Source: a phage
Sequence record: OZ418233.1
Length of the DNA stretch: 40,362 nucleotides
Strand: one strand, 5' to 3'
Of the stretch, positions 2,238-35,469 are shown piece by piece. How positions within the stretch are numbered: position 1 is the stretch's first letter; each line of letters begins with the position of its first letter. The notes beneath the pieces are model-generated. The model was given only the letters and a program-made list of their open reading frames with translations, searched no databases and was not told where the DNA came from. A program made the position numbers and the translations under genes.

Positions 2238-2609
2238 TTATTGCTCGCTTAGCTTCTGCTTCAGCAAGTAACCTTCGAGCATCCAGATTTTGTTTACAGC
2301 ATTCTGCCGGGCAATCTTCCGACCAATTTCTGCATCAAAGTTTTCCGGGCTTGCACAGGCGCTCTCTCCGGTGACGGTGAAGCCGTTGCGCAGCACCAGA
2401 ACGCAGAACGTCAGCAGAGAAAGTGATTCGTGCGGCTGGTAGTTTACCTCTCCGCCAGTATGTTTCGCTTTTATGGCTACGCCAAAGACACCATCTTCTG
2501 CTGTGAAATATGCCTCCTGAGCAATAATGCTCTCGATATGGTCTGGCGTAACGCGCGGCGCGGCTAAACCTTTAGCCTGAATTTCAGATTCAATGTCTTT
2601 GTCACTCAT
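2238..2609 (-). CDS. hypothetical phage protein (123 aa)
   Basis: Clean minus-strand ORF with RBS-like AAGGTGAGA upstream of ATG at 2609; possibly a widespread small phage family, not verified. Confidence 0.45.
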   Translation of the reverse strand: MSDKDIESEIQAKGLAAPRVTPDHIESIIAQEAYFTAEDGVFGVAIKAKHTGGEVNYQPHESLSLLTFCVLVLRNGFTVTGESACASPENFDAEIGRKIARQNAVNKIWMLEGYLLKQKLSEQ

Positions 2610-2625
2610 AGTCTAATCTCACCTT

Positions 2626-2650
2626 AAAAAAATGCCCGGCGAACCGGGCG
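2626..2650 (-). terminator. intrinsic terminator downstream of tRNA (minus strand)
   Basis: Plus strand reads AAAAAAA + GCCCGGCGAACCGGGC; on the minus strand this is a GC-rich hairpin followed by a U-run. Confidence 0.6.
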
Positions 2651-2812
2651 AACTGGAAGCAATGAGTTATGCCTTCCGTGGCTGTACTGGTTTACAGCAT
2701 GAAGTCATCGCAATGGCGTCCTGCTGTAAAAAGGGCGGTGATAGTCCTTCAAGGGAAACCATCACCGCCAAGCACCTGGAACTTCTGGCATCACGGTCCT
2801 TAGGCGTGATTC

Positions 2813-2889
2813 TGGCGTGGCATGCAGGATTCGAACCTGCGACCAACCGCTTAGAAGGCGGTTGCTCTGTCCGACTGAGCTAATGCCAC
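2813..2889 (-). tRNA. tRNA-Arg (anticodon TCT)
   Basis: Reverse complement reads GTGGCAT-TA-GCTC-AGTCGGACA-GAGC-A-ACCGC-CTTCTAA-GCGGT-TGGTC-GCAGG-TTCGAAT-CCTGC-ATGCCAC-G-CCA: 7-bp acceptor stem, D, anticodon and T arms all pair, anticodon loop CT-TCT-AA, encoded CCA. Confidence 0.85.
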
Positions 2890-3211
2890 AACGCTGAGAG
2901 CACTTAGCCTGTTAAGGCGCCACACTTTGTCGCGGCTCCATAAATGCTCTCATCGTTGTACCCTCGTCTCTTCCGAGGCGTCACACCGAATAGCCGGGAT
3001 GGTGAATCCCCGTGCGCGGAATAAAACCGCTCGACTTGCACATTCCGGCTACCTGGTTCGTTTGCCCGAGCAAGGGAGGGTGCCCCTTAAACGTATCCAG
3101 ACCGCTATCGTCGCATGTGCCATACGCCGTACTGCTCAAAATAAAAGCTCACTCCACCTGTTCAATTTAACGACAAGCCAGTCAGGTTAGTAACCGGAAT
3201 GAGCTCTTTAG

Positions 3212-3226
3212 TTACCTGAAAGGTAA
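3212..3226. promoter_or_regulatory. palindromic operator-like motif TTACC-TGAAA-GGTAA
   Basis: Perfect TTACC-N5-GGTAA inverted repeat, about 90 bp upstream of the first virion gene; one of 12 such sites in the window. Confidence 0.55.
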
Positions 3227-3316
3227 TAATTAACGCGTTAAATGTCAACCTTCTACGATAAATAAAACATATGTGGTTAAATTGGTAATAATTTAATTGC
3301 GTACGGAGTCATTGAT

Positions 3317-3537: not shown

Positions 3538-5217
3538 ATGGCGGAAACAACTAAAGAGCGATTGAACAAACAGTTCGCACAACTTGAAAGCGAGCGTCAG
3601 TCGTTCGAGCCGCACTGGCGCGAGTTGAGTGATTACATCAACCCGCGTGGTTCCCGCTTTCTGACTTCTGAGGTCAACCGTAACGATCGACGCAATACAC
3701 GCATTATTGATTCGACCGGGACTATGGCGGCGCGCACTCTCGCCAGCGGCATGATGTCAGGCATCACAAGCCCCGCGCGTCCGTGGTTTCGCCTGGCTAC
3801 GCCAGATCCTGAAATGATGGATTATGGCCCTGTTAAGTTGTGGCTTGAGGCGGTGCAGAACCGCATGAACGATATGTTCAATAAGTCGAATCTCTACCAG
3901 TCTCTTCCGCAGTTATACGGAAGCCTCGGCACATACAGCACTGGTGCAATGGCGGTGCTGGAGGATGACGAGGACATCATTCGCACAATGCCATTCCCGA
4001 TAGGCAGTTACTACCTGGCTAACTCACCTCGTGGCAGTGTGGACACCTGTTTTCGCAAGTTCTCTATGACTGTTCGTCAGCTTGTTCAGGAGTTCGGACT
4101 AAATAACGTCAGCGAATCCGTAAAAAGCATGTGGGAAAGCGGCGCCTACGAGAAGTGGATTGACGTGATGCATTCGGTTTACCCGAACATTGACCGCGAT
4201 ACATCGAAGCTGGATAGCAAGAACAAGCCATTCAAATCGGTTTATTACGAGGTTGGTGGCGATAACGACAAGTTGTTGCGTGAGTCCGGATTCGATGAGT
4301 TCCCAATTATGGCTCCGCGCTGGGAAGTTAACGGCGAAGATGTTTATGGATCATCATGCCCGGGTATGCTGGCGCTTGGACCTGTTAAGGCACTGCAGCT
4401 TCTCCAGAAGCGCAAGTCGCAGTTGATTGATAAAGCCACCAATCCGCCGATGGTTGCTCCGACTTCCCTCAAGAATCAGCGTGCCTCCCTTCTTCCTGGC
4501 GACATCACGTATATCGATCAGATTACTGGTCAGGATGGTTTCAGGCCTGCTTATCTGGTTAACCCCAGTACAGCAGATTTGGTGGCAGACATTCAGGACA
4601 CTCGTCAAATCATTAACAGCGCCTACTTTGTCGATCTGTTCATGATGTTGCAGAACATCAATACCCGCTCGATGCCTGTTGAAGCGGTGATCGAAATGAA
4701 AGAAGAAAAACTTCTGATGTTGGGGCCGGTTCTGGAGCGTCTGAACGACGAATGTCTTAATCCTCTCATTGACCGCGCTTTCTCGATGATGGTGCGTAAA
4801 AACATGCTGCCGCCACCGCCTGACGCGATGGAAGGTATGCCCCTGAAGGTCGAATACATTTCTGTCATGGCTCAGGCGCAGAAGTCTATCGGCCTGTCCA
4901 GTCTGGCGTCCACGGTTAACTTCATTGGTCAACTTGCGCAAGCGAAACCAGAAGCTCTCGACAAACTCAACGTTGATCAGGCGATCGATGCATTCGCTGA
5001 TATGTCCGGAGTGTCTCCAACCGTCATTGTTCCGCAGGAACAGGTTGAGCAGGCTCGCCAGCAACGGGCACAGCAACAACAGCAGCAACAAATGATGGCG
5101 ATGGGGATGGCGGCGGCACAGGGTGCCAAGACGCTAAGCGAAGCTAAAACTTCGGATCCGAGTGTTTTGTCAGCTATGGCGAATGCAGTTAGTGGTCAGG
5201 GTGGGCAATCACAATGA
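3538..5217 (+). CDS. portal (head-to-tail connector) protein, T7 gp8-like
   Basis: 559-aa ORF with Q-rich C-terminus (QQQQQQQMMAMGMAAAQG...) as in T7-type connectors; gene order portal-scaffold-capsid. Confidence 0.85.
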   Translation: MAETTKERLNKQFAQLESERQSFEPHWRELSDYINPRGSRFLTSEVNRNDRRNTRIIDSTGTMAARTLASGMMSGITSPARPWFRLATPDPEMMDYGPVKLWLEAVQNRMNDMFNKSNLYQSLPQLYGSLGTYSTGAMAVLEDDEDIIRTMPFPIGSYYLANSPRGSVDTCFRKFSMTVRQLVQEFGLNNVSESVKSMWESGAYEKWIDVMHSVYPNIDRDTSKLDSKNKPFKSVYYEVGGDNDKLLRESGFDEFPIMAPRWEVNGEDVYGSSCPGMLALGPVKALQLLQKRKSQLIDKATNPPMVAPTSLKNQRASLLPGDITYIDQITGQDGFRPAYLVNPSTADLVADIQDTRQIINSAYFVDLFMMLQNINTRSMPVEAVIEMKEEKLLMLGPVLERLNDECLNPLIDRAFSMMVRKNMLPPPPDAMEGMPLKVEYISVMAQAQKSIGLSSLASTVNFIGQLAQAKPEALDKLNVDQAIDAFADMSGVSPTVIVPQEQVEQARQQRAQQQQQQQMMAMGMAAAQGAKTLSEAKTSDPSVLSAMANAVSGQGGQSQ

Positions 5218-14937: not shown

Positions 14938-15264
14938 ATGACTAAAAATACTCGTTTTTCCCCCGAAGTCCGTCAACGGGCAGTCCGTATGGTTCTGGAA
15001 AGTCAGAGCGAATATGACTCACAATGGGCGACAATTTGTTCCATTGCTCCAAAGATTGGCTGTACGCCGGAGACTCTGCGTGTCTGGGTTCGCCAGCATG
15101 AGCGGGATACCGGGGGCGGTGATGGAGGGCTCACCACCGCTGAACGTCAGCGTCTGAAAGAGCTGGAACGTGAAAATCGTGAACTGCGCCGCAGTAACGA
15201 TATCCTTCGCCAGGCTTCCGCTTATTTTGCGAAGGCGGAGTTCGACCGCCTCTGGAAAAAATGA
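14938..15264 (+). CDS. IS3-family transposase OrfA (HTH)
   Basis: 108 aa ending in a leucine-zipper-like segment ([25 protein letters not shown]); overlaps orfB in the -1 frame as in IS3 elements. Confidence 0.85.
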
Positions 15265-16151
15265 TGCCACTGCTGGATAAGCTGCGTGAGCAGTACGGGG
15301 TCGGACCGCTATGCAGCGAACTGCATATTGCCCCGTCAACGTATTACCACTGTCAGCAACAGCGACATCATCCGGATAAACGCAGTGCCCGTGCGCAGCG
15401 CGATGACTGGCTGAAGAAAGAGATACAGCGCGTATACGATGAAAATCACAAGGTATACGGTGTGCGTAAAGTCTGGCGTCAGTTGTTACGGGAAGGTATC
15501 AGAGTGGCCAGATGCACTGTGGCACGTCTCATGGCGGTTATGGGACTTGCCGGTGTTCTCCGGGGTAAAAAGGTCCGTACGACCATCAGCCGGAAAGCCG
15601 TTGCCGCAGGCGACCGCGTAAACCGTCAGTTCGTGGCAGAACGACCTGACCAGCTGTGGGTGGCTGATTTTACTTACGTCAGCACATGGCGGGGCTTCGT
15701 CTATGTGGCGTTCATCATTGATGTGTTTGCCGGATACATCGTGGGGTGGCGGGTCTCATCGTCCATGGAAACGACATTCGTGCTGGATGCACTGGAGCAG
15801 GCGTTATGGGCCCGTCGACCGTCCGGCACGGTCCATCACAGTGATAAAGGTTCTCAGTATGTATCGCTGGCCTACACACAGCGGCTTAAGGAAGCCGGAT
15901 TACTGGCATCAACAGGAAGTACAGGCGACTCGTATGACAACGCGATGGCGGAGAGCATCAATGGTCTTTACAAAGCGGAGGTAATACACCGTAAGAGCTG
16001 GAAAAACCGTGCAGAAGTGGAACTGGCCACACTCACGTGGGTGGACTGGTATAACAATCGACGATTGCTGGAAAGGCTGGGCCATACTCCTCCGGCAGAA
16101 GCAGAAAAAGCTTATTATGCTTCCATCGGAAACGATGATCTGGCAGCCTGA
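15261..16151 (+). CDS. IS3-family transposase OrfB (DDE integrase-like catalytic domain)
   Basis: 296 aa with rve-type features (WVADFTYV..., HSDKGSQY..., [15 protein letters not shown]); overlaps orfA, consistent with programmed frameshift expression. Confidence 0.85.
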
Positions 16152-22031: not shown

Positions 22032-22046
22032 TTACCTTTAAGGTAA
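22032..22046. promoter_or_regulatory. operator-like motif TTACC-TTTAA-GGTAA
   Basis: Perfect copy of the shared palindrome, 13 bp upstream of the 55-aa gene start, directly after a -10-like TAATAT on the minus strand. Confidence 0.55.
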
Positions 22047-22112: not shown

Positions 22113-22799
22113 TCAGAAGAACCCTGCTTTGTCGTTGATGTACTCCGCGTGGGTCTGGATATCACGCAGGCATTTGCTCACACCAACGATGTAGCAGAAC
22201 ATGGTGGTCAGCTCCGCCGCCGCTCCCGATACGTCGTGCCCGTCGTCCTGTAACTGGTTCAGCAGATTCATCAGCAGTGAGTTCTCCGTCAGGCCGAGAA
22301 CACCAGACGGCGAATGAATCAGGCTACGGTAGCCGGGCTTCAGTGGGGCGCTGTAGGTTTTGTTCTCTATCTTCATTGCCTGCATCACTGCTGACGCCGT
22401 GGCGTTGGCTACCTGGTCGGCAACCATCTTTATGCGTTCTTCTTGCGGGAGCGAGTTTTTAATGTAACTTCCGGTGCGGCGGATCTGAGGAAGAACCTCA
22501 CCTGTAACCCATTTACGAAAGCGGTATGGGATAGTGCCTGGTGTCACCGCATCGCGGCAGCGGAGGATCAGTGTGTAGAGGCCTGACTCGTTGATAATAT
22601 TGGTTTCGCCTTGACGGCCTAAGTTAAATTTAGCCCTTTCATCATCATCAAGAGATTTTATTGACATAGTGGGGTTTGTCAGTTGAAGAGCTTTAATAAC
22701 GTCTTTGGCAACAAACCAAGGATTTCCATCAATAACAATGGCTCGAATGGTTGCTTCTGATTCAAAATGAAAAACAGATGGGGTTACGTTAGCAGTCAT
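22113..22799 (-). CDS. Bro-N domain protein (antirepressor-like), 228 aa
   Basis: From internal ATG with RBS AGGTGA: MTANVTPSVFHFESEATIRAIVIDGNPWFVAKDVIKALQL... is a Bro-N-type N-terminal domain; C-terminal about 65 aa is paralogous to the small protein at 23945-24217. Confidence 0.7.
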   Translation of the reverse strand: MTANVTPSVFHFESEATIRAIVIDGNPWFVAKDVIKALQLTNPTMSIKSLDDDERAKFNLGRQGETNIINESGLYTLILRCRDAVTPGTIPYRFRKWVTGEVLPQIRRTGSYIKNSLPQEERIKMVADQVANATASAVMQAMKIENKTYSAPLKPGYRSLIHSPSGVLGLTENSLLMNLLNQLQDDGHDVSGAAAELTTMFCYIVGVSKCLRDIQTHAEYINDKAGFF

Positions 22800-22952
22800 A
22801 GTGATCACCTTTGTAGTTAGGTTAATCACCACTACCGACGCCAATCGGTTGGTGGTGAACTGTGCAGGGTTGGCGTAACCGGCTACAAAGGACCCGGCGC
22901 ACCTTTCGGTGCCCCCACACAGCCCACCATAGAATAGGTGCGCTTTACACAT

Positions 22953-22971
22953 AAAAAAACCGCTTATGCGG
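22953..22971 (-). terminator. candidate terminator/attenuator in the leader upstream of the Bro-N gene
   Basis: On the minus strand: GCCGCATAAGCGG hairpin followed by TTTTTTTA; lies between the operator/promoter region (about 23060-23080) and the Bro-N start. Confidence 0.3.
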
Positions 22972-23065
22972 CATATGTGCCTCTGTAGTAATCCGGGACG
23001 CCAATCCCGGCACTGGATTTTGCCAGTGCCCGATTACTATGGCACAAGAGGAGTGCGATGTAAAT

Positions 23066-24398: not shown

Positions 24399-26588
24399 AT
24401 GACGGTCTCAACCGAAGTTGACCACAACGAATACACCGGTAACGGCGTTACGACATCATTTCCGTATACCTTCCGTATTTTCAAAAAAACCGACCTGGTT
24501 GTTCAGGTGTCTGACCTGAACGGGAACGTAACAGAATTGGTTCTGGATACCGGTTATAAGGTAACTGGAGCGGGCACTTATAGTGGCGGTGAAGTGGTTC
24601 TCCCGTCGCCGCTTGCTGCTGGCTGGCGAATTACGATAGAGCGTGTGCTTGATGTGGTGCAGGAGACTGATCTTCGCAATCAGGGAAAATTTTTCCCCGA
24701 AGTTCATGAAGATGCATTTGACTACCTGACGATGCTGATCCAGCGATGTTTTGGGTGGTTCAGACGTGCATTGATGAAACCATCTTTGCTTGCAAAATAT
24801 TACGATGCAAAGCAAAACAAAATTTCTAACCTTGCAGATCCATCATTTGAGCAGGACGCTGTAAATAATCGCTCAATGCGTAATTATGTCGATGCTGCAA
24901 TCGCCGGGGTTGTTGGTGGTTTTGGTTGGTTTATACCGTCAGGAAGCGGGGCAAGACAACGAACATTTCAAAGCAAAATGAGGGATATAATTTCTCCTTG
25001 TGATTACGAAGATAATATTTTTATGATTAAGGAGTTGATATCCAAAGGCAAAAATGCCGCTGTTTTTAACTCATATTATACTTTTGTTATTACTGTTGGC
25101 GAATGGGGTGATTACCCTACACTCAAAGATGCAATCATTGCAGCCCAGTCAATGAGACCTATGTGGGATGGTGGTAATGCTTTCTGCGAAATAAGAATTA
25201 AGACCGGGCATATTATCAACTATCAAATTGAATTCAGTTCAGGTGTTGATTTGTCTTGGATTAAAATAACATCAGAAGACTCAGTGGTTTTCTCTGATAC
25301 TCGTTTGTTTACTAAAATCGTTAGAACGTATTACGAATACAAGTATTTATTTTACATTTGCGATGCAGCAAAAAGTCCTGTATTTGCTATTCAGATCGAA
25401 GAAAATAGAGATGATAGCGATGTTTGTGCATTTATTGTAACTCAAAAAGCTGAACTTAATTTCTATCCGTATTCAGGTGCTCGAAAGTTCTACGTTGGAA
25501 TTCATGGTAGTTTTGGTGCAAAAATTAGTGCATATCATACCGGATGTGCTCCTGATGAGGAAAGTGTTGCTGCATATATGCCAGAAGGGTATTACGTATG
25601 TGATTTTTCTTATAGCAGATACTCTTCCCTGCAACTGGTAAATAATGTCAAGGCATCAATGCCTGTAAGCAAGTTTGAACGGTGCACAGAGAGTACGGTT
25701 GCGTCAGTTAATTGTATTTATAATGTTAAAGCAGATTTTCAGGGGTCAAGTGCAAGCTATTGTTATATAGGATGGAATGTAAGAGATGGTTCAAATGTTA
25801 ATATACGCGACCATAAAACTATACATTGCTCATATCGTGGATTAACCTGCATTCATACAGCATATGTTGATGCAAGACGACATGACGTTGAAGAAAGTGA
25901 TGCAGAAACAAGTGGTAAAGTCCTTGAACCAAATATTGAAAAAGGTTTTTATGGATGTGCACTTGGTGTGCGTATTGATGGTGCGGGTTGCGTTGATGTT
26001 GCTGGTAATGATATGCGCAATTGTGGAACAGCCGTTAATGCAGACACTGGTGCTGTTATTTCAGGAAAGGCTGTAGATATCTCAGGGGCTGAGCTGGGAT
26101 TTGATTGCCATGCAGGAGCATCTGTTAATTTTCCAAGGCTATGGGGTACAGATATAAAAAAATTAATGCACCTCCAAGATGGTGTAAGGTTTAACTCTAA
26201 TATTTGTCATGTATTTGGTGCAAATCCCACAAAAGATATTAGATGGATTGATGTAGAGAGATCTGAAGCTTCTTTTATGAATGCAACGCTGGATGCAGAT
26301 TCAGGATTTATTGCCGACTGTGGTAGTAGGATAACCATTGAAGGAAGTAAAGTTAAAAACCAAACAATAAGAAGTTTTTTTGGATCATATGTGGCTATAA
26401 ATAATACTGTTGCTGACAGAACTTATTCAGATATAGCCGATGTTCCGCAGTTGACTATTAGTGGAGGATCTTTTATTTCTGCTACAGGATATTCTAATTC
26501 TGACTCCAGCCCTCTGAGGTTGAGCACAACACGAAATACACTTGGCGTTGGAGGAGCCATATTTTCAACCAATGGGGAAGTTTCATGA
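24399..26588 (+). CDS. tailspike / receptor-binding depolymerase (729 aa)
   Basis: N-terminal about 130 aa resembles the conserved particle-binding module of podovirus tailspikes (from memory); the remaining body is visibly AT-rich; RBS GGAG. Confidence 0.75.
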   Translation: MTVSTEVDHNEYTGNGVTTSFPYTFRIFKKTDLVVQVSDLNGNVTELVLDTGYKVTGAGTYSGGEVVLPSPLAAGWRITIERVLDVVQETDLRNQGKFFPEVHEDAFDYLTMLIQRCFGWFRRALMKPSLLAKYYDAKQNKISNLADPSFEQDAVNNRSMRNYVDAAIAGVVGGFGWFIPSGSGARQRTFQSKMRDIISPCDYEDNIFMIKELISKGKNAAVFNSYYTFVITVGEWGDYPTLKDAIIAAQSMRPMWDGGNAFCEIRIKTGHIINYQIEFSSGVDLSWIKITSEDSVVFSDTRLFTKIVRTYYEYKYLFYICDAAKSPVFAIQIEENRDDSDVCAFIVTQKAELNFYPYSGARKFYVGIHGSFGAKISAYHTGCAPDEESVAAYMPEGYYVCDFSYSRYSSLQLVNNVKASMPVSKFERCTESTVASVNCIYNVKADFQGSSASYCYIGWNVRDGSNVNIRDHKTIHCSYRGLTCIHTAYVDARRHDVEESDAETSGKVLEPNIEKGFYGCALGVRIDGAGCVDVAGNDMRNCGTAVNADTGAVISGKAVDISGAELGFDCHAGASVNFPRLWGTDIKKLMHLQDGVRFNSNICHVFGANPTKDIRWIDVERSEASFMNATLDADSGFIADCGSRITIEGSKVKNQTIRSFFGSYVAINNTVADRTYSDIADVPQLTISGGSFISATGYSNSDSSPLRLSTTRNTLGVGGAIFSTNGEVS

Positions 26589-34215: not shown

Positions 34216-34230
34216 TTACCGTTGAGGTAA
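34216..34230. promoter_or_regulatory. operator-like motif TTACC-GTTGA-GGTAA
   Basis: Perfect palindrome at the head of the leftward early operon. Confidence 0.55.
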
Positions 34231-34277
34231 TAATTATGCGTATCTGGTTTGATGTCAATAGATATGAGTTAAAAAAA

Positions 34278-34292
34278 TTACCCGTTAGGTAA
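34278..34292. promoter_or_regulatory. operator-like motif TTACC-CGTTA-GGTAA
   Basis: Perfect palindrome 62 bp from the previous site. Confidence 0.55.
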
Positions 34293-34302
34293 TCGAATAG
34301 GC

Positions 34303-34328
34303 AATAAAAAAGCCGCCATAAGGCGGCT
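34303..34328 (-). terminator. intrinsic terminator after the repressor gene (minus strand)
   Basis: On the minus strand AGCCGCC-TTAT-GGCGGCT hairpin followed by TTTTTTATT. Confidence 0.7.
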
Positions 34329-34349
34329 TACTTACTGAAAAATATGATT

Positions 34350-34934
34350 TTATTGTTTGTTTTTTTCGTTCTGGTTGATGACAAATTCAATGTAACTTTC
34401 GATCTTTGCCTTCTCTGTTTCAGGTAGCAATGCGTAGCGCGAGCGGTCATAGTTGATAGTCGCGGGGTCGTGCGGGTGAATCAGTAATTCATATCCGTGA
34501 CGCCCAAATGCGGATGCAACATTCTCCAGGGTGGAAATGGAAACGCTGACCTCATTGTTTAACAGGCGGCTGATTGTTACCTGGGCGACGCCGGATGCGC
34601 GGTGAAGTTTTCCCTGCGTTGAAAGGTCGCGGCTTTCGCTCATCCAGCGTTCCAGGTTGTGAGCCGCCAGTTGACCAATGTCGCTTGGTCCGACAGGCTG
34701 AAAACCTTCCTGAGAAAGCGAGCGATCGATATCAAGCCAGTTACGGGGTTTATTGGCGGCAGCTTCAATTTTTCGCGCAACCTGGTCGCCGATAACCTTC
34801 TTGCCAAGAGCCCAGCGGTTTACCAGATTTGCCTGAGTTCCAAGTTTTTCAGCCATCCGCGTCTGAACACCATTGAATTCACGGTCGATCAAGTCGTTGA
34901 GATTTTGCCTGCGGACGTCCTGGATACTTTTCAT
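34350..34934 (-). CDS. prophage repressor candidate with two HTH (XRE-like) domains, no peptidase domain
   Basis: 194 aa; two HTH-like segments (…TRMAEKLGTQANLVNRWALGK… and …SGVAQVTISRLLNNEVSVSISTLENVASAFG…); divergent from a Cro-like gene with two palindromic operators between them; no Ala-Gly/Ser...Lys S24-type self-cleavage module seen. Confidence 0.55.
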   Translation of the reverse strand: MKSIQDVRRQNLNDLIDREFNGVQTRMAEKLGTQANLVNRWALGKKVIGDQVARKIEAAANKPRNWLDIDRSLSQEGFQPVGPSDIGQLAAHNLERWMSESRDLSTQGKLHRASGVAQVTISRLLNNEVSVSISTLENVASAFGRHGYELLIHPHDPATINYDRSRYALLPETEKAKIESYIEFVINQNEKNKQ

Positions 34935-34989
34935 TTTCTGGAAAATCGCCTCATATCTGAATCAGAAGATGATTCAATTTAAAGCAATA

Positions 34990-35004
34990 TTACCCAACAG
35001 GTAA
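34990..35004. promoter_or_regulatory. operator-like motif TTACC-CAACA-GGTAA (immunity region)
   Basis: Perfect palindrome in the repressor/Cro-like divergent intergenic region. Confidence 0.6.
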
Positions 35005-35037
35005 ATGCACCTCATGGGTAACTATCCTTGATTTTTG

Positions 35038-35052
35038 TTACCTTATAGGTGA
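35038..35052. promoter_or_regulatory. operator-like motif TTACC-TTATA-GGTGA (one mismatch) overlapping a rightward promoter
   Basis: Sits between a -35-like TTGTTA (35035-35040) and a -10-like TATTAT (35058-35063, 17-bp spacing) upstream of the Cro-like gene. Confidence 0.55.
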
Positions 35053-35088
35053 ATATTTATTATCTGAAATAAATATCAGGCAATAGCT

Positions 35089-35319
35089 ATGAGCGATAAC
35101 GGACATTTCGATTTCAAAAAGCACTGGCTTGCACTTACTCCGGATGAGCGTGAAGCCTTCGCACAGGAAGCCGGAACGACGAGTCACTATATCCAGACTC
35201 ACTTAACAGGTAAGCGCAAAATGCCAGGTAAGGTATTGATGAATGGGCTTTTTAAAGCCTGTAAATCAAGACAATGGCTGCGCTCAAAAGCAGAACTGGC
35301 ATACTTCTTCTACTCATGA
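35089..35319 (+). CDS. Cro-like small HTH regulator (76 aa)
   Basis: Small basic protein with an HTH-like segment (EREAFAQEAGTTSHYIQTHLTG), first gene of the rightward operon, divergent from the repressor. Confidence 0.5.
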   Translation: MSDNGHFDFKKHWLALTPDEREAFAQEAGTTSHYIQTHLTGKRKMPGKVLMNGLFKACKSRQWLRSKAELAYFFYS

Positions 35320-35340
35320 TATCCAGCCACAACCCTCTGT

Positions 35341-35364
35341 AGACCGCCATCCGGCGGTCTTTTC
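35341..35364 (+). terminator. intrinsic terminator candidate after the Cro-like gene
   Basis: AGACCGCC-ATCC-GGCGGTCT 8-bp stem followed by TTTC; followed by a partial operator GCACC-TCAAA-GGTAA at 35375-35389. Confidence 0.5.
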
Positions 35365-35469
35365 ATATCTATTCGCACCTCAAAGGTAATAAAAAACCAA
35401 ATCTGGTTGATCTTTTTTTTGTGTCAGCACAAAATGACCGTAATCCCAATGCTAATAACAGGGCTTACC

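Follow-up and report, generated by a model that had tools for sequence, protein, structure and literature searches.

Directly upstream of a tRNA-Arg gene in sequence record OZ418233.1, a phage DNA of 40,362 nt that was analysed over its full length (hereafter the window), lies an element of ~245 nt (3133-2889, minus strand) that we consider, with high confidence, to be a genuine and selected RNA fold, read in the minus-strand sense. A preliminary description, made from the letters of the window, had regarded the DNA next to the tRNA as unexplained and non-coding. The block instead encodes a strongly conserved and covarying RNA family, which is widespread and independent of the tRNA. Tentatively, and with appreciable doubt, we propose that this RNA is a cis-acting leader for processive antitermination.

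Fold and covariation of the RNA element

In total 147 copies of the element were collected and grouped at 93% identity into 50 clusters, and the 50 representatives were used to derive the fold. It consists of six helices and two candidate pseudoknots (Table 1). Pairing in the core was assessed on alignment A4, using as controls 500 shuffles and alignments in which the partners were slid by 1-3 columns. Standard pairs make up 97.2% of the pair cells, and 13 of the 34 core pairs have changed on both sides. Not one of the 500 shuffles matches any of the pairing measures, and the slid controls pair only 25-42%. The number of pairs with double changes rises to 27 once helix P6 is counted, as all 14 pairs of this helix are doubly changed and 80-95% of its cells are paired. 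The 3′ strand of P6 reads UGCUCUCAGCGUUG(UGG) and is boxA-like, and the last P6 pair takes in G1 of the tRNA. The second candidate pseudoknot is formed between GCAC in the loop of helix P1 and GUGC in the invariant 19-mer. A covariance model of the core (R1) recognizes the element with 141.6 bits (E 6e-41) as the sole copy in the window, the next match scoring 10.6 bits. No match to Rfam 15 was obtained for window 2890-3316 at E values up to 10, nor for the copies of phages P1 and mEp460 at permissive thresholds.

Two U-G pairs of the fold are invariant and many G-U variants occur elsewhere; on the opposite strand these would read A-C. Based on the invariant U-G pairs the sense strand is the minus strand, which is also that of the tRNA. 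This asymmetry bears on the possibility that the block acts as DNA and not as RNA, either as a cluster of protein sites or as a recombination or packaging signal. The block adjoins operator sites and marks mosaic junctions between phage types, which would fit such a role. The retention of G-U pairs argues against it however, as do the fixed orientation of the block relative to the flanking genes and the position of the operator palindrome, which is outside the conserved block. We therefore consider action at the DNA level very improbable.

As the preliminary description had stated, region 2890-3211 contains no trustworthy open reading frame (ORF): across the 50 relatives none stays open, and lengths vary modulo 3. 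In addition, the variable columns of the element alignment have no 3-periodicity. The protein-coding reading of the block was rejected on these grounds, and the idea of a type I toxin or small peptide because no small ORF is conserved. Two readings of the invariant motifs were dropped by eye, a sigma-54 promoter (TGGCAC), in which the -12 element does not fit, and CsrA sites (GGA), for which the GGA density does not fit. Public records contain ORFs over the tRNA and the element (window 2632-2883 and 2927-3190, both plus strand; L004 2930-3298), examples being PhiV10p04 and mEp460 gp37. These are almost certainly spurious and, whichever mechanism holds, those over the element should be removed from annotations.

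Distribution and genomic contexts

A BLAST search with window 2890-3316 as query showed that the block matches Uetakeviruses and the lambda-like phages mEp460, cdtI, Stx2c and Stx2a phages, Ayreon and 2H10. The lambda-like phages match at ~82% over 240 bp, have otherwise nothing in common with the prophage, and in none of them is a tRNA present at this position. The shared match runs from the 5′ edge of the tRNA to near 3130. The block is common to otherwise unrelated phages at 70-82% identity, with differing flanks. A pattern made of two invariant stretches was found at 15 loci in species-representative genomes, which belong to Klebsiella, Citrobacter, Kosakonia, Phytobacter, Kluyvera, Enterobacter, Pseudescherichia and Erwinia dacicola. 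The same pattern was run on IMG/VR, for which counts are those among the matches listed.

A tRNA-Arg(tct) follows the element in 36 of the 147 copies and no tRNA is present in the remaining 111, which demonstrates that the element is independent of the tRNA. At 81 of 146 loci the element is preceded, at a distance of ~155 nt, by the end of a same-strand gene for an S24 cI-like repressor and is followed by early-left genes (for an unknown 126-aa protein, YfdQ/DUF2303 and the YfdR nucleotidase); the context seen in the window occurs in 37 loci. In phage mEp460 the gap contains, in this order, the cI terminator, two TTGCAnnnnnnGCAA operators, the sequence TTGCAT-17-TATCTT, ~40 nt, the element, ~150 nt and a strong terminator before the first gene, and no ORF is present between promoter and first gene. 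The element is always co-oriented with the genes downstream of it.

Of 5,426 complete E. coli genomes, 1,812 contain the core, and 530 of the sites are located on P1-like plasmids of ~90-100 kb. Phage P1 itself contains a copy (NC_005856.1 71,020-71,203; L158 11021-11204; 128 bits), located in an unannotated gap of 286 nt between trnI and ban. This copy lies inside the C1-controlled ban operon, 2.3 kb downstream of the ban promoter and directly before ban. Its helix P5 is re-paired at three positions (three compensatory pairs), helix P6 is absent, and P1-type copies have the loop GGAAGAGUC. A large and strongly covarying fold is therefore unannotated in one of the best-studied phages. Since Stx2-converting and other lambda-like prophages also carry the element, as does a third of the complete E. 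coli genomes, the RNA adjacent to the tRNA is not routine, as the tRNA itself is.

The distribution also speaks to the view that the block is nothing special, being a tRNA promoter, leader, spacer or decayed gene that is kept by hitch-hiking. Annotators did call ORFs there (PhiV10p04, the now-removed p05 and mEp460 gp37), and part of the block is missing in epsilon15. Against this stand the 111 copies without a tRNA, compensatory changes far above the controls, the lack of any conserved frame, and the 70-82% identity of the block in otherwise unrelated phages with different flanks. To us this view is hardly credible. Together, the covariation, the strand asymmetry and the distribution contradict both an absence of function and a function at the DNA level.

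In epsilon15 (L003 2688-2730 compared with L009/L008) the loss of the tRNA corresponds to a deletion between two 13-nt repeats, UUCCCUUGAUGCU, which lie in the apical loops of helix P2 and of terminator T1, respectively. The tRNA, the 5′ arm of T1 and the greater part of the element were lost in this one event. In the window, the pyrimidine motif UCCCUUG is present in both the P2 and the T1 loop. No second copy of the element was found after a rightward promoter or elsewhere in the window. A tandem exception is the IMG/VR contig L035, which has copies at 3994-4156 and 4801-4961 (minus strand), ~650 nt apart, upstream of genes of the ParB-HTH (helix-turn-helix) type and beside a SieB-like gene. 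Model R1 gave no match in ST64B and K-12 CPS-53, which share the early-left genes. ST64B (L150 27238-28052) retains the operators, the 3′ end of P6 and the leader terminator, and the core is replaced by a different insert of ~330 nt. The insert contains CCUGUAGCCAGUGCAAGCGA, which faintly recalls the invariant 19-mer, and could represent a remote variant beyond the reach of the model.

Promoter, operators and terminators of the leftward unit

According to the preliminary description the DNA upstream of the tRNA might carry the tRNA promoter or another small RNA. A plausible promoter is indeed located at 3248-3220 and an RNA is indeed encoded, this being the ~245-nt structured element and not a small RNA. 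Transcription from the candidate promoter is predicted to start near 3213. The promoter was not listed by a stricter consensus scan. The sequence TTGACA/TTGACC-17-TACCTT precedes helix P1 by 27-95 nt in many diverged copies of the Uetakevirus type. Promoter scores of at least 9 were obtained on the sense strand for 23 of 49 representatives, compared with 2 on the antisense strand and 11 for shuffles. The leader between the predicted start and helix P1 is conserved only within the Uetakevirus-type copies (alignment A2).

The palindrome that overlaps the -10 sequence and the predicted start (motif TTACCTnnnAGGTAA) has 17 matches with at most two mismatches in the window, where 0.95 are expected. 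The matches cluster at the HTH_3 repressor gene (34350-34934) and at the Bro-N antirepressor gene (22113-22952). The 16 sites other than 3212-3226 include those at 22032, 23066, 23159, 24280, 29134, 34216-35389, 37345 and 37407, in intergenic promoter regions, and the epsilon15 record labels the site homologous to 3212-3226 as 'repressor' binding. The palindromes probably constitute the predicted operators of the prophage repressor. Because they are found at intergenic promoter regions across the prophage, the promoters of structural genes may be directly repressed as well.

The preliminary description had assigned to the tRNA a terminator of its own. This hairpin with its U-run (T2, 2649..2634) was confirmed, but it is the second of two, the stronger terminator T1 (stem 2769..2734) having been missed. 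Both are predicted to be intrinsic (Rho-independent) terminators. The stem of T1 begins 44 nt after the tRNA and covaries across relatives (pairs 15:42 and 16:41 of alignment A7), and so does that of T2 (pairs 148:156 and 149:155 of A7, GC/AU and CG/GC). The U-run of T2 adjoins the Shine-Dalgarno sequence AAGGUGA of the gp49-family gene. Diverged Uetakevirus-type loci share the inter-terminator segment at 73-88% identity; it has one covarying pair (62:81, AU in 14 and GC in 8 sequences) and a fold z-score of -2.3. Window 2626-2733 (minus strand) contains the invariant sequence ACGCCAUUGCGAUGAC and an Hfq-type 3′ end, which is T2; it could be a small RNA or an attenuator for the gp49-like gene. 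Among the 50 representatives, 38 have a sense-strand terminator within 600 nt after the element, and often two that are ~100 nt apart; the terminator finder is noisy, as it also made antisense-strand calls in 24 of the 50.

Table 1. Features of the leftward unit in the window (positions are those of the whole window)
Feature	Position	Strand	Basis or remarks
Candidate sigma-70 promoter of the leftward unit	3220..3248	-	TTGACA (3248-3243), 17-nt spacer, TACCTT (3225-3220); from sequence
Palindrome TTACCTgaaAGGTAA, likely repressor operator	3212..3226	.	Overlaps -10 and predicted start
5′ leader, predicted start to helix P1	3134..3211	-	Weak hairpin 3197..3178
Element core	2956..3133	-	Covariance model R1 and covariation
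Helix P1	3129-3122 with 3116-3109	-	Alignment of representatives
Helix P2, distal part variable	3105-3097 with 3056-3048	-	Alignment of representatives
Invariant 19-mer GGUAGCCGGAAUGUGCAAG	3053-3035	-	Element core
Variable hairpin	~3030-3016	-	Element core
Helix P4	3010-3007 with 2999-2996	-	Element core
Candidate pseudoknot, P4 loop CACC with GGUG	3004-3001 with 2987-2984	-	
Helix P5, loop GAAGAGA	2978-2974 with 2966-2962	-	Element core
Helix P6, long 3′ closing helix round a variable insert	2958-2945 with 2902-2889 (feature 2889..2958)	-	Covariation
tRNA-Arg(UCU), argU paralogue, CCA end encoded	2813-2889	-	ARAGORN, Rfam, alignment with K-12 argU
Predicted terminator T1, 14-bp stem 2769..2734 then CUUUUUAC	2727..2769	-	Consensus scan; ~-22.8 kcal/mol
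Inter-terminator segment, hairpins ACAGCAGGACGCCAUUGCGAUGAC..GCUGU and GGAAGGCA..UGCUUCC	2650..2733	-	Conserved, ~85 nt
Predicted terminator T2, GCCCGG-UUCG-CCGGGC then AUUUUUUU	2626..2649	-	Hairpin and U-run 2649..2634, T-run to 2626
Phage_gp49_66 family gene (N4 gp49 / Sf6 gp66)	2238..2609	-	Pfam PF13876, E 2.4e-35; RefSeq 'Gp49 family protein'

A possible antitermination leader

The features described above form one leftward transcription unit, probably under control of a phage repressor, in the order promoter/operator (3248-3212), leader of ~80 nt, RNA element (3133-2889), tRNA-Arg, T1, the 85-nt hairpin segment, T2 and the gp49-family gene. The tRNA is a passenger in the untranslated space of an early transcript, and would be made on derepression and excised by RNase P and 3′-processing enzymes. 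The nascent RNA of the element would modify RNA polymerase, either alone, like put of phage HK022, or together with host Nus factors via the boxA-like strand of P6. So modified, polymerase would pass T1 and T2 here, or the leader terminator in lambda-like phages without an N gene, and it would resist Rho on the long untranslated stretch.

Evidence pointing in this direction comes from the covarying structure and from position and sequence. In lambda-like phages without an N gene the element occupies the nutL/putL position. In 38 of the 50 representatives a terminator stands between the element and the first gene, the epsilon15 deletion took away the 5′ arm of T1 together with most of the element, and the operator palindrome overlaps the -10 sequence of the candidate promoter. 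The sequence between element and terminator is unrelated among phages, being the tRNA here and other sequence elsewhere, which argues against a local alternative pairing or antiterminator hairpin and in favour of action at a distance. Furthermore, the motif TGCTCT(CA/TT/CT)..GTTGTGG (UGCUCUYW..GUUGUGG in the RNA) is present in 106 of 126 distinct tails. The boxA-like strand reads TGCTCTCA in 83 of these tails, TGCTCTTT in 12 and TGCTCTCT in 8, agreeing with boxA at 6-8 of the 8 core positions, and it is paired within P6. The boxA consensus is UGCUCUUUAACAA for rrn and CGCUCUUA for lambda, and the likeness was judged against these two sequences. The mEp phages were isolated as Nus-dependent (PMC11893012). 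For lambda-like phages that lack N and have early-left genes of the yfdP/Q/R type no antiterminator is known, and a put-like RNA has been suggested for lambda-like phages without N (PMC12315714).

In its wider form the proposal is that the element constitutes a second, evolutionarily unrelated class of RNA-based processive antiterminator, present in P1-like phage-plasmids, N-less lambda-like phages and epsilon15-like phages, and that it explains early-left expression past the strong leader terminator. We advance this form with still more reserve. An antiterminator would provide a concrete and testable answer to how the early-left leader terminator is read through in lambda-like phages without N, and a new way of remodelling RNA polymerase.

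The presence of a strong terminator after the element in most contexts would also fit a free-standing, stable non-coding RNA that acts in trans and to which the downstream genes are incidental. Such an RNA would be released by the RNase P cut at the 5′ end of tRNA-Arg here, or by 3′ processing of tRNA-Ile in phage P1, plus T1, and it would bind polymerase, a nuclease, a defence protein, tRNA-related machinery or some other factor of host or phage. The long invariant single-stranded segments, which include the 19-mer, and the two candidate pseudoknots are typical of RNAs with tertiary structure or protein partners. The downstream genes have no common theme (gp49-family, YfdP/Q/R, ParB-HTH, Exc and the DnaB-like Ban), and tRNAs adjoin the element on either side in different phages, just as the large phage RNAs GOLLD and ROOL are typically found beside tRNAs. 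A trans-acting RNA does not account, however, for the invariable placement of the element, which directly precedes genes of repressor-controlled operons and has their orientation. Moreover, phage P1 and about a quarter of the representatives have no terminator before the next gene, and in lambda-like phages an RNA gene ending at the strong terminator would block the only known early-left route. We consider a trans-acting RNA unlikely, while giving it real weight; it would make the element an enterobacterial counterpart, in genetically tractable organisms, of the enigmatic tRNA-linked phage RNAs.

The copy in phage P1 and those of a subgroup with an alternative 3′ domain are located directly in the 5′ untranslated region of the next gene, and in the window the U-run of T2 adjoins the Shine-Dalgarno sequence of the gp49-like gene. 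These positions suit a local cis-regulatory leader (an attenuator, riboswitch-like sensor, 5′ stabiliser or processing platform), which would determine how stable the adjacent tRNA or mRNA is, or how it is processed or translated, and leave the processivity of polymerase unchanged. In addition, GCACAU in the loop of helix P1 is perfectly complementary to AUGUGC in the invariant 19-mer, and RNAalifold prefers this pairing over the top of helix P1, a hint that the RNA may adopt more than one conformation. It is difficult, however, to recognize a common expression platform, as the intervening sequences are unrelated (the tRNA, other inserts) and the distances range from 90 to >400 nt. Neither do the downstream genes share a function that would point to a ligand, nor does any riboswitch or leader family of Rfam match. 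A local role of this kind appears quite unlikely.

Various observations also weigh against the antitermination leader that we propose. The mechanism is drawn from sequence and genomic context. Model R1 has no match at putL or putR of HK022, and a BLAST search with putL returned 21 phage records, none of which is a carrier of the element. The resemblance to put (ACGGCG..CAUGCGUCG) seen in a MAFFT alignment is local, in helix P1, and is limited to a subset of the copies, and the fold exceeds the 70-nt put RNA in size and complexity. Each phage has a single copy, with no rightward counterpart such as putR or nutR, and a search for a second nut-like site (boxA plus a hairpin with a GGCUGA loop) gave none. 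The copy in phage P1, at 2.3 kb from the ban promoter, is not followed by an intrinsic terminator, and no downstream terminator is predicted for 12 of the 50 representatives. Finally, NusB/NusE bind single-stranded boxA, and the boxA-like strand of the element is base-paired within P6.

Relationship to known systems

Like the put sites of HK022, which are cis-acting processive antiterminators consisting of RNA only (PMC9378689), the element belongs, in the sense orientation, to the leader of an early operon that is under repressor control in a temperate enterobacterial phage without N, and faces terminators that have to be passed. Both have two 5′ stem-loops separated by a short junction, and in some copies of the element the base of helix P1 (CGGCG/CGUCG after CAUG) is identical to that of stem I of putL. 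The promoter-proximal position in an early leader is shared in the lambda-like and Uetakevirus contexts but not in phage P1. Whereas put comprises 70 nt and two helices, the element has 245 nt and six helices; it is single per genome, without a putR equivalent, and has no covariance-model or BLAST relationship to put. Homology to HK022 put was rejected, as there is no covariance-model match and the resemblance is confined to helix P1.

Leaders of the boxA/nut type (lambda nutL/nutR, the rrn leader and the boxA of CRISPR arrays; PMC7665894) resemble the element in that its motif UGCUCU(C/U)(A/U) is boxA-like and is followed by a GU-rich run. Lambda-like copies (e.g. L004 2975-2998) also contain a 5-bp hairpin 14 nt past the boxA-like motif, after P6, of which the loop GGCUGA is conserved and the stem covaries. 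Protection of a long untranslated transcript, as exerted by boxA leaders, would hold for the element too, and its mEp host phages are those reported to be Nus-dependent (PMC11893012). The differences are that the boxA-like strand of the element is paired in P6, that most copies deviate from the rrn boxA at positions 7-8, and that the nut and rrn leaders have no counterpart to the 180-nt core upstream. Besides, no N-like ORF between promoter and terminator and no second site is present at the element loci, and the boxB-like hairpin is restricted to part of the lambda-like copies.

GOLLD, ROOL and other large ornate phage RNAs (PMC12286853) are likewise structured non-coding RNAs of prophages, without known function and often beside tRNA genes. 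They differ in having 500-800 nt and in occurring mostly outside the Enterobacteriaceae; none of their Rfam models matches the element, for which nothing points to multimers. The invariant sequence of the element occurs in none of the papers in the literature collection searched, and the element goes unmentioned in those on put, lambda-like phages, phage ZX5 and P1 in an hfq mutant. An unnamed motif in a 2023 catalogue of structured RNAs from IMG/VR, which sometimes overlaps tRNA-Arg, could be this element. The RNA family thus appears to be undescribed; at best guess it is functionally similar to put or to boxA leaders, and it is a member of neither.

The tRNA-Arg(UCU)

ARAGORN detected a single tRNA in the whole window, a tRNA-Arg with anticodon tct at 2813-2889 (minus strand), which scores 73.3 bits with the Rfam tRNA model RF00005 (threshold 29). 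This bears out the complete tRNA-Arg(UCU) of the preliminary description. An alignment with E. coli K-12 argU, which has the same anticodon and an encoded CCA end, showed identity in the D arm, the anticodon loop and the T arm. The acceptor and anticodon stems are re-paired relative to argU, every stem difference being a paired change, and GCCA is encoded. Judged by these features the tRNA is intact and looks functional. It had been said not to be the remnant of an attachment site, and we agree: it is intact and is located within a conserved leftward unit between the portal and terminase genes. The tRNA is not new, as records of phiV10-like phages and prophages in GenBank/RefSeq already carry the annotation. 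Among other phage-borne tRNAs (trnA, trnT and trnI of phage P1), trnI is likewise found beside the untranslated RNA in a repressor-controlled early operon. Only the phiV10 group has the tRNA between terminase and portal genes. The absence of the tRNA from epsilon15 and from 111 of the 147 loci with the RNA element demonstrates that it is dispensable for the family.

The codons AGA and AGG together have a frequency of 9.1 per 1000 in the structural genes of the plus strand and of 16.1 per 1000 in the remaining genes, and hence are elevated over the roughly 3-4 per 1000 of E. coli K-12. The view that the tRNA supports late gene translation is nevertheless too simple, since the distribution is uneven: AGA and AGG are near zero in the terminase, portal and head genes, and most are found in tail, tailspike and early genes. 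A 729-aa ORF at 24399-26588 (plus strand), presumed from its size and position to encode the tailspike, has 13 AGA and 5 AGG among its 36 Arg codons. This value, far above that of the head genes, suggests recent acquisition from a source of lower GC content. The codon usage is consistent with codon supplementation by the tRNA. It offers a partial rationale and no proof, since the tRNA is absent from epsilon15 and does not accompany most relatives of the RNA next to it.

The prophage and other features of the window

Over the ~1.4 kb round the element and tRNA, identity is 100% with prophages of several E. coli chromosomes, for instance that of strain 118UI, and 98.6% with phage phiV10. On the basis of this near-identity and of the shared gene order, the window is assigned to an epsilon15/phiV10-type (Uetakevirus) prophage of E. 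coli. The order is small and large terminase genes (plus strand), Gp49-family gene (minus), tRNA-Arg (minus), and a 68-aa gene and the portal gene (plus). The gp49-family gene is the last gene of the leftward unit and is convergent with the terminase gene.

Phage phiV10 is ~1.3 kb shorter than the window. An insertion sequence of the IS3 family (14938-16151, plus strand), with HTH_Tnp_1 and rve ORFs, is present among the tail and ejection genes of the prophage, and an ALIL frameshift pseudoknot lies inside it at 15219-15335. Rfam also detected a C4 antisense RNA (79.5 bits) and isrK (76.8 bits), which adjoin each other at 22848-23029 (minus strand). This pair is located directly upstream of the Bro-N antirepressor gene (22113-22952), with which it forms an RNA immunity module of the P1/P7 type within a podovirus prophage.

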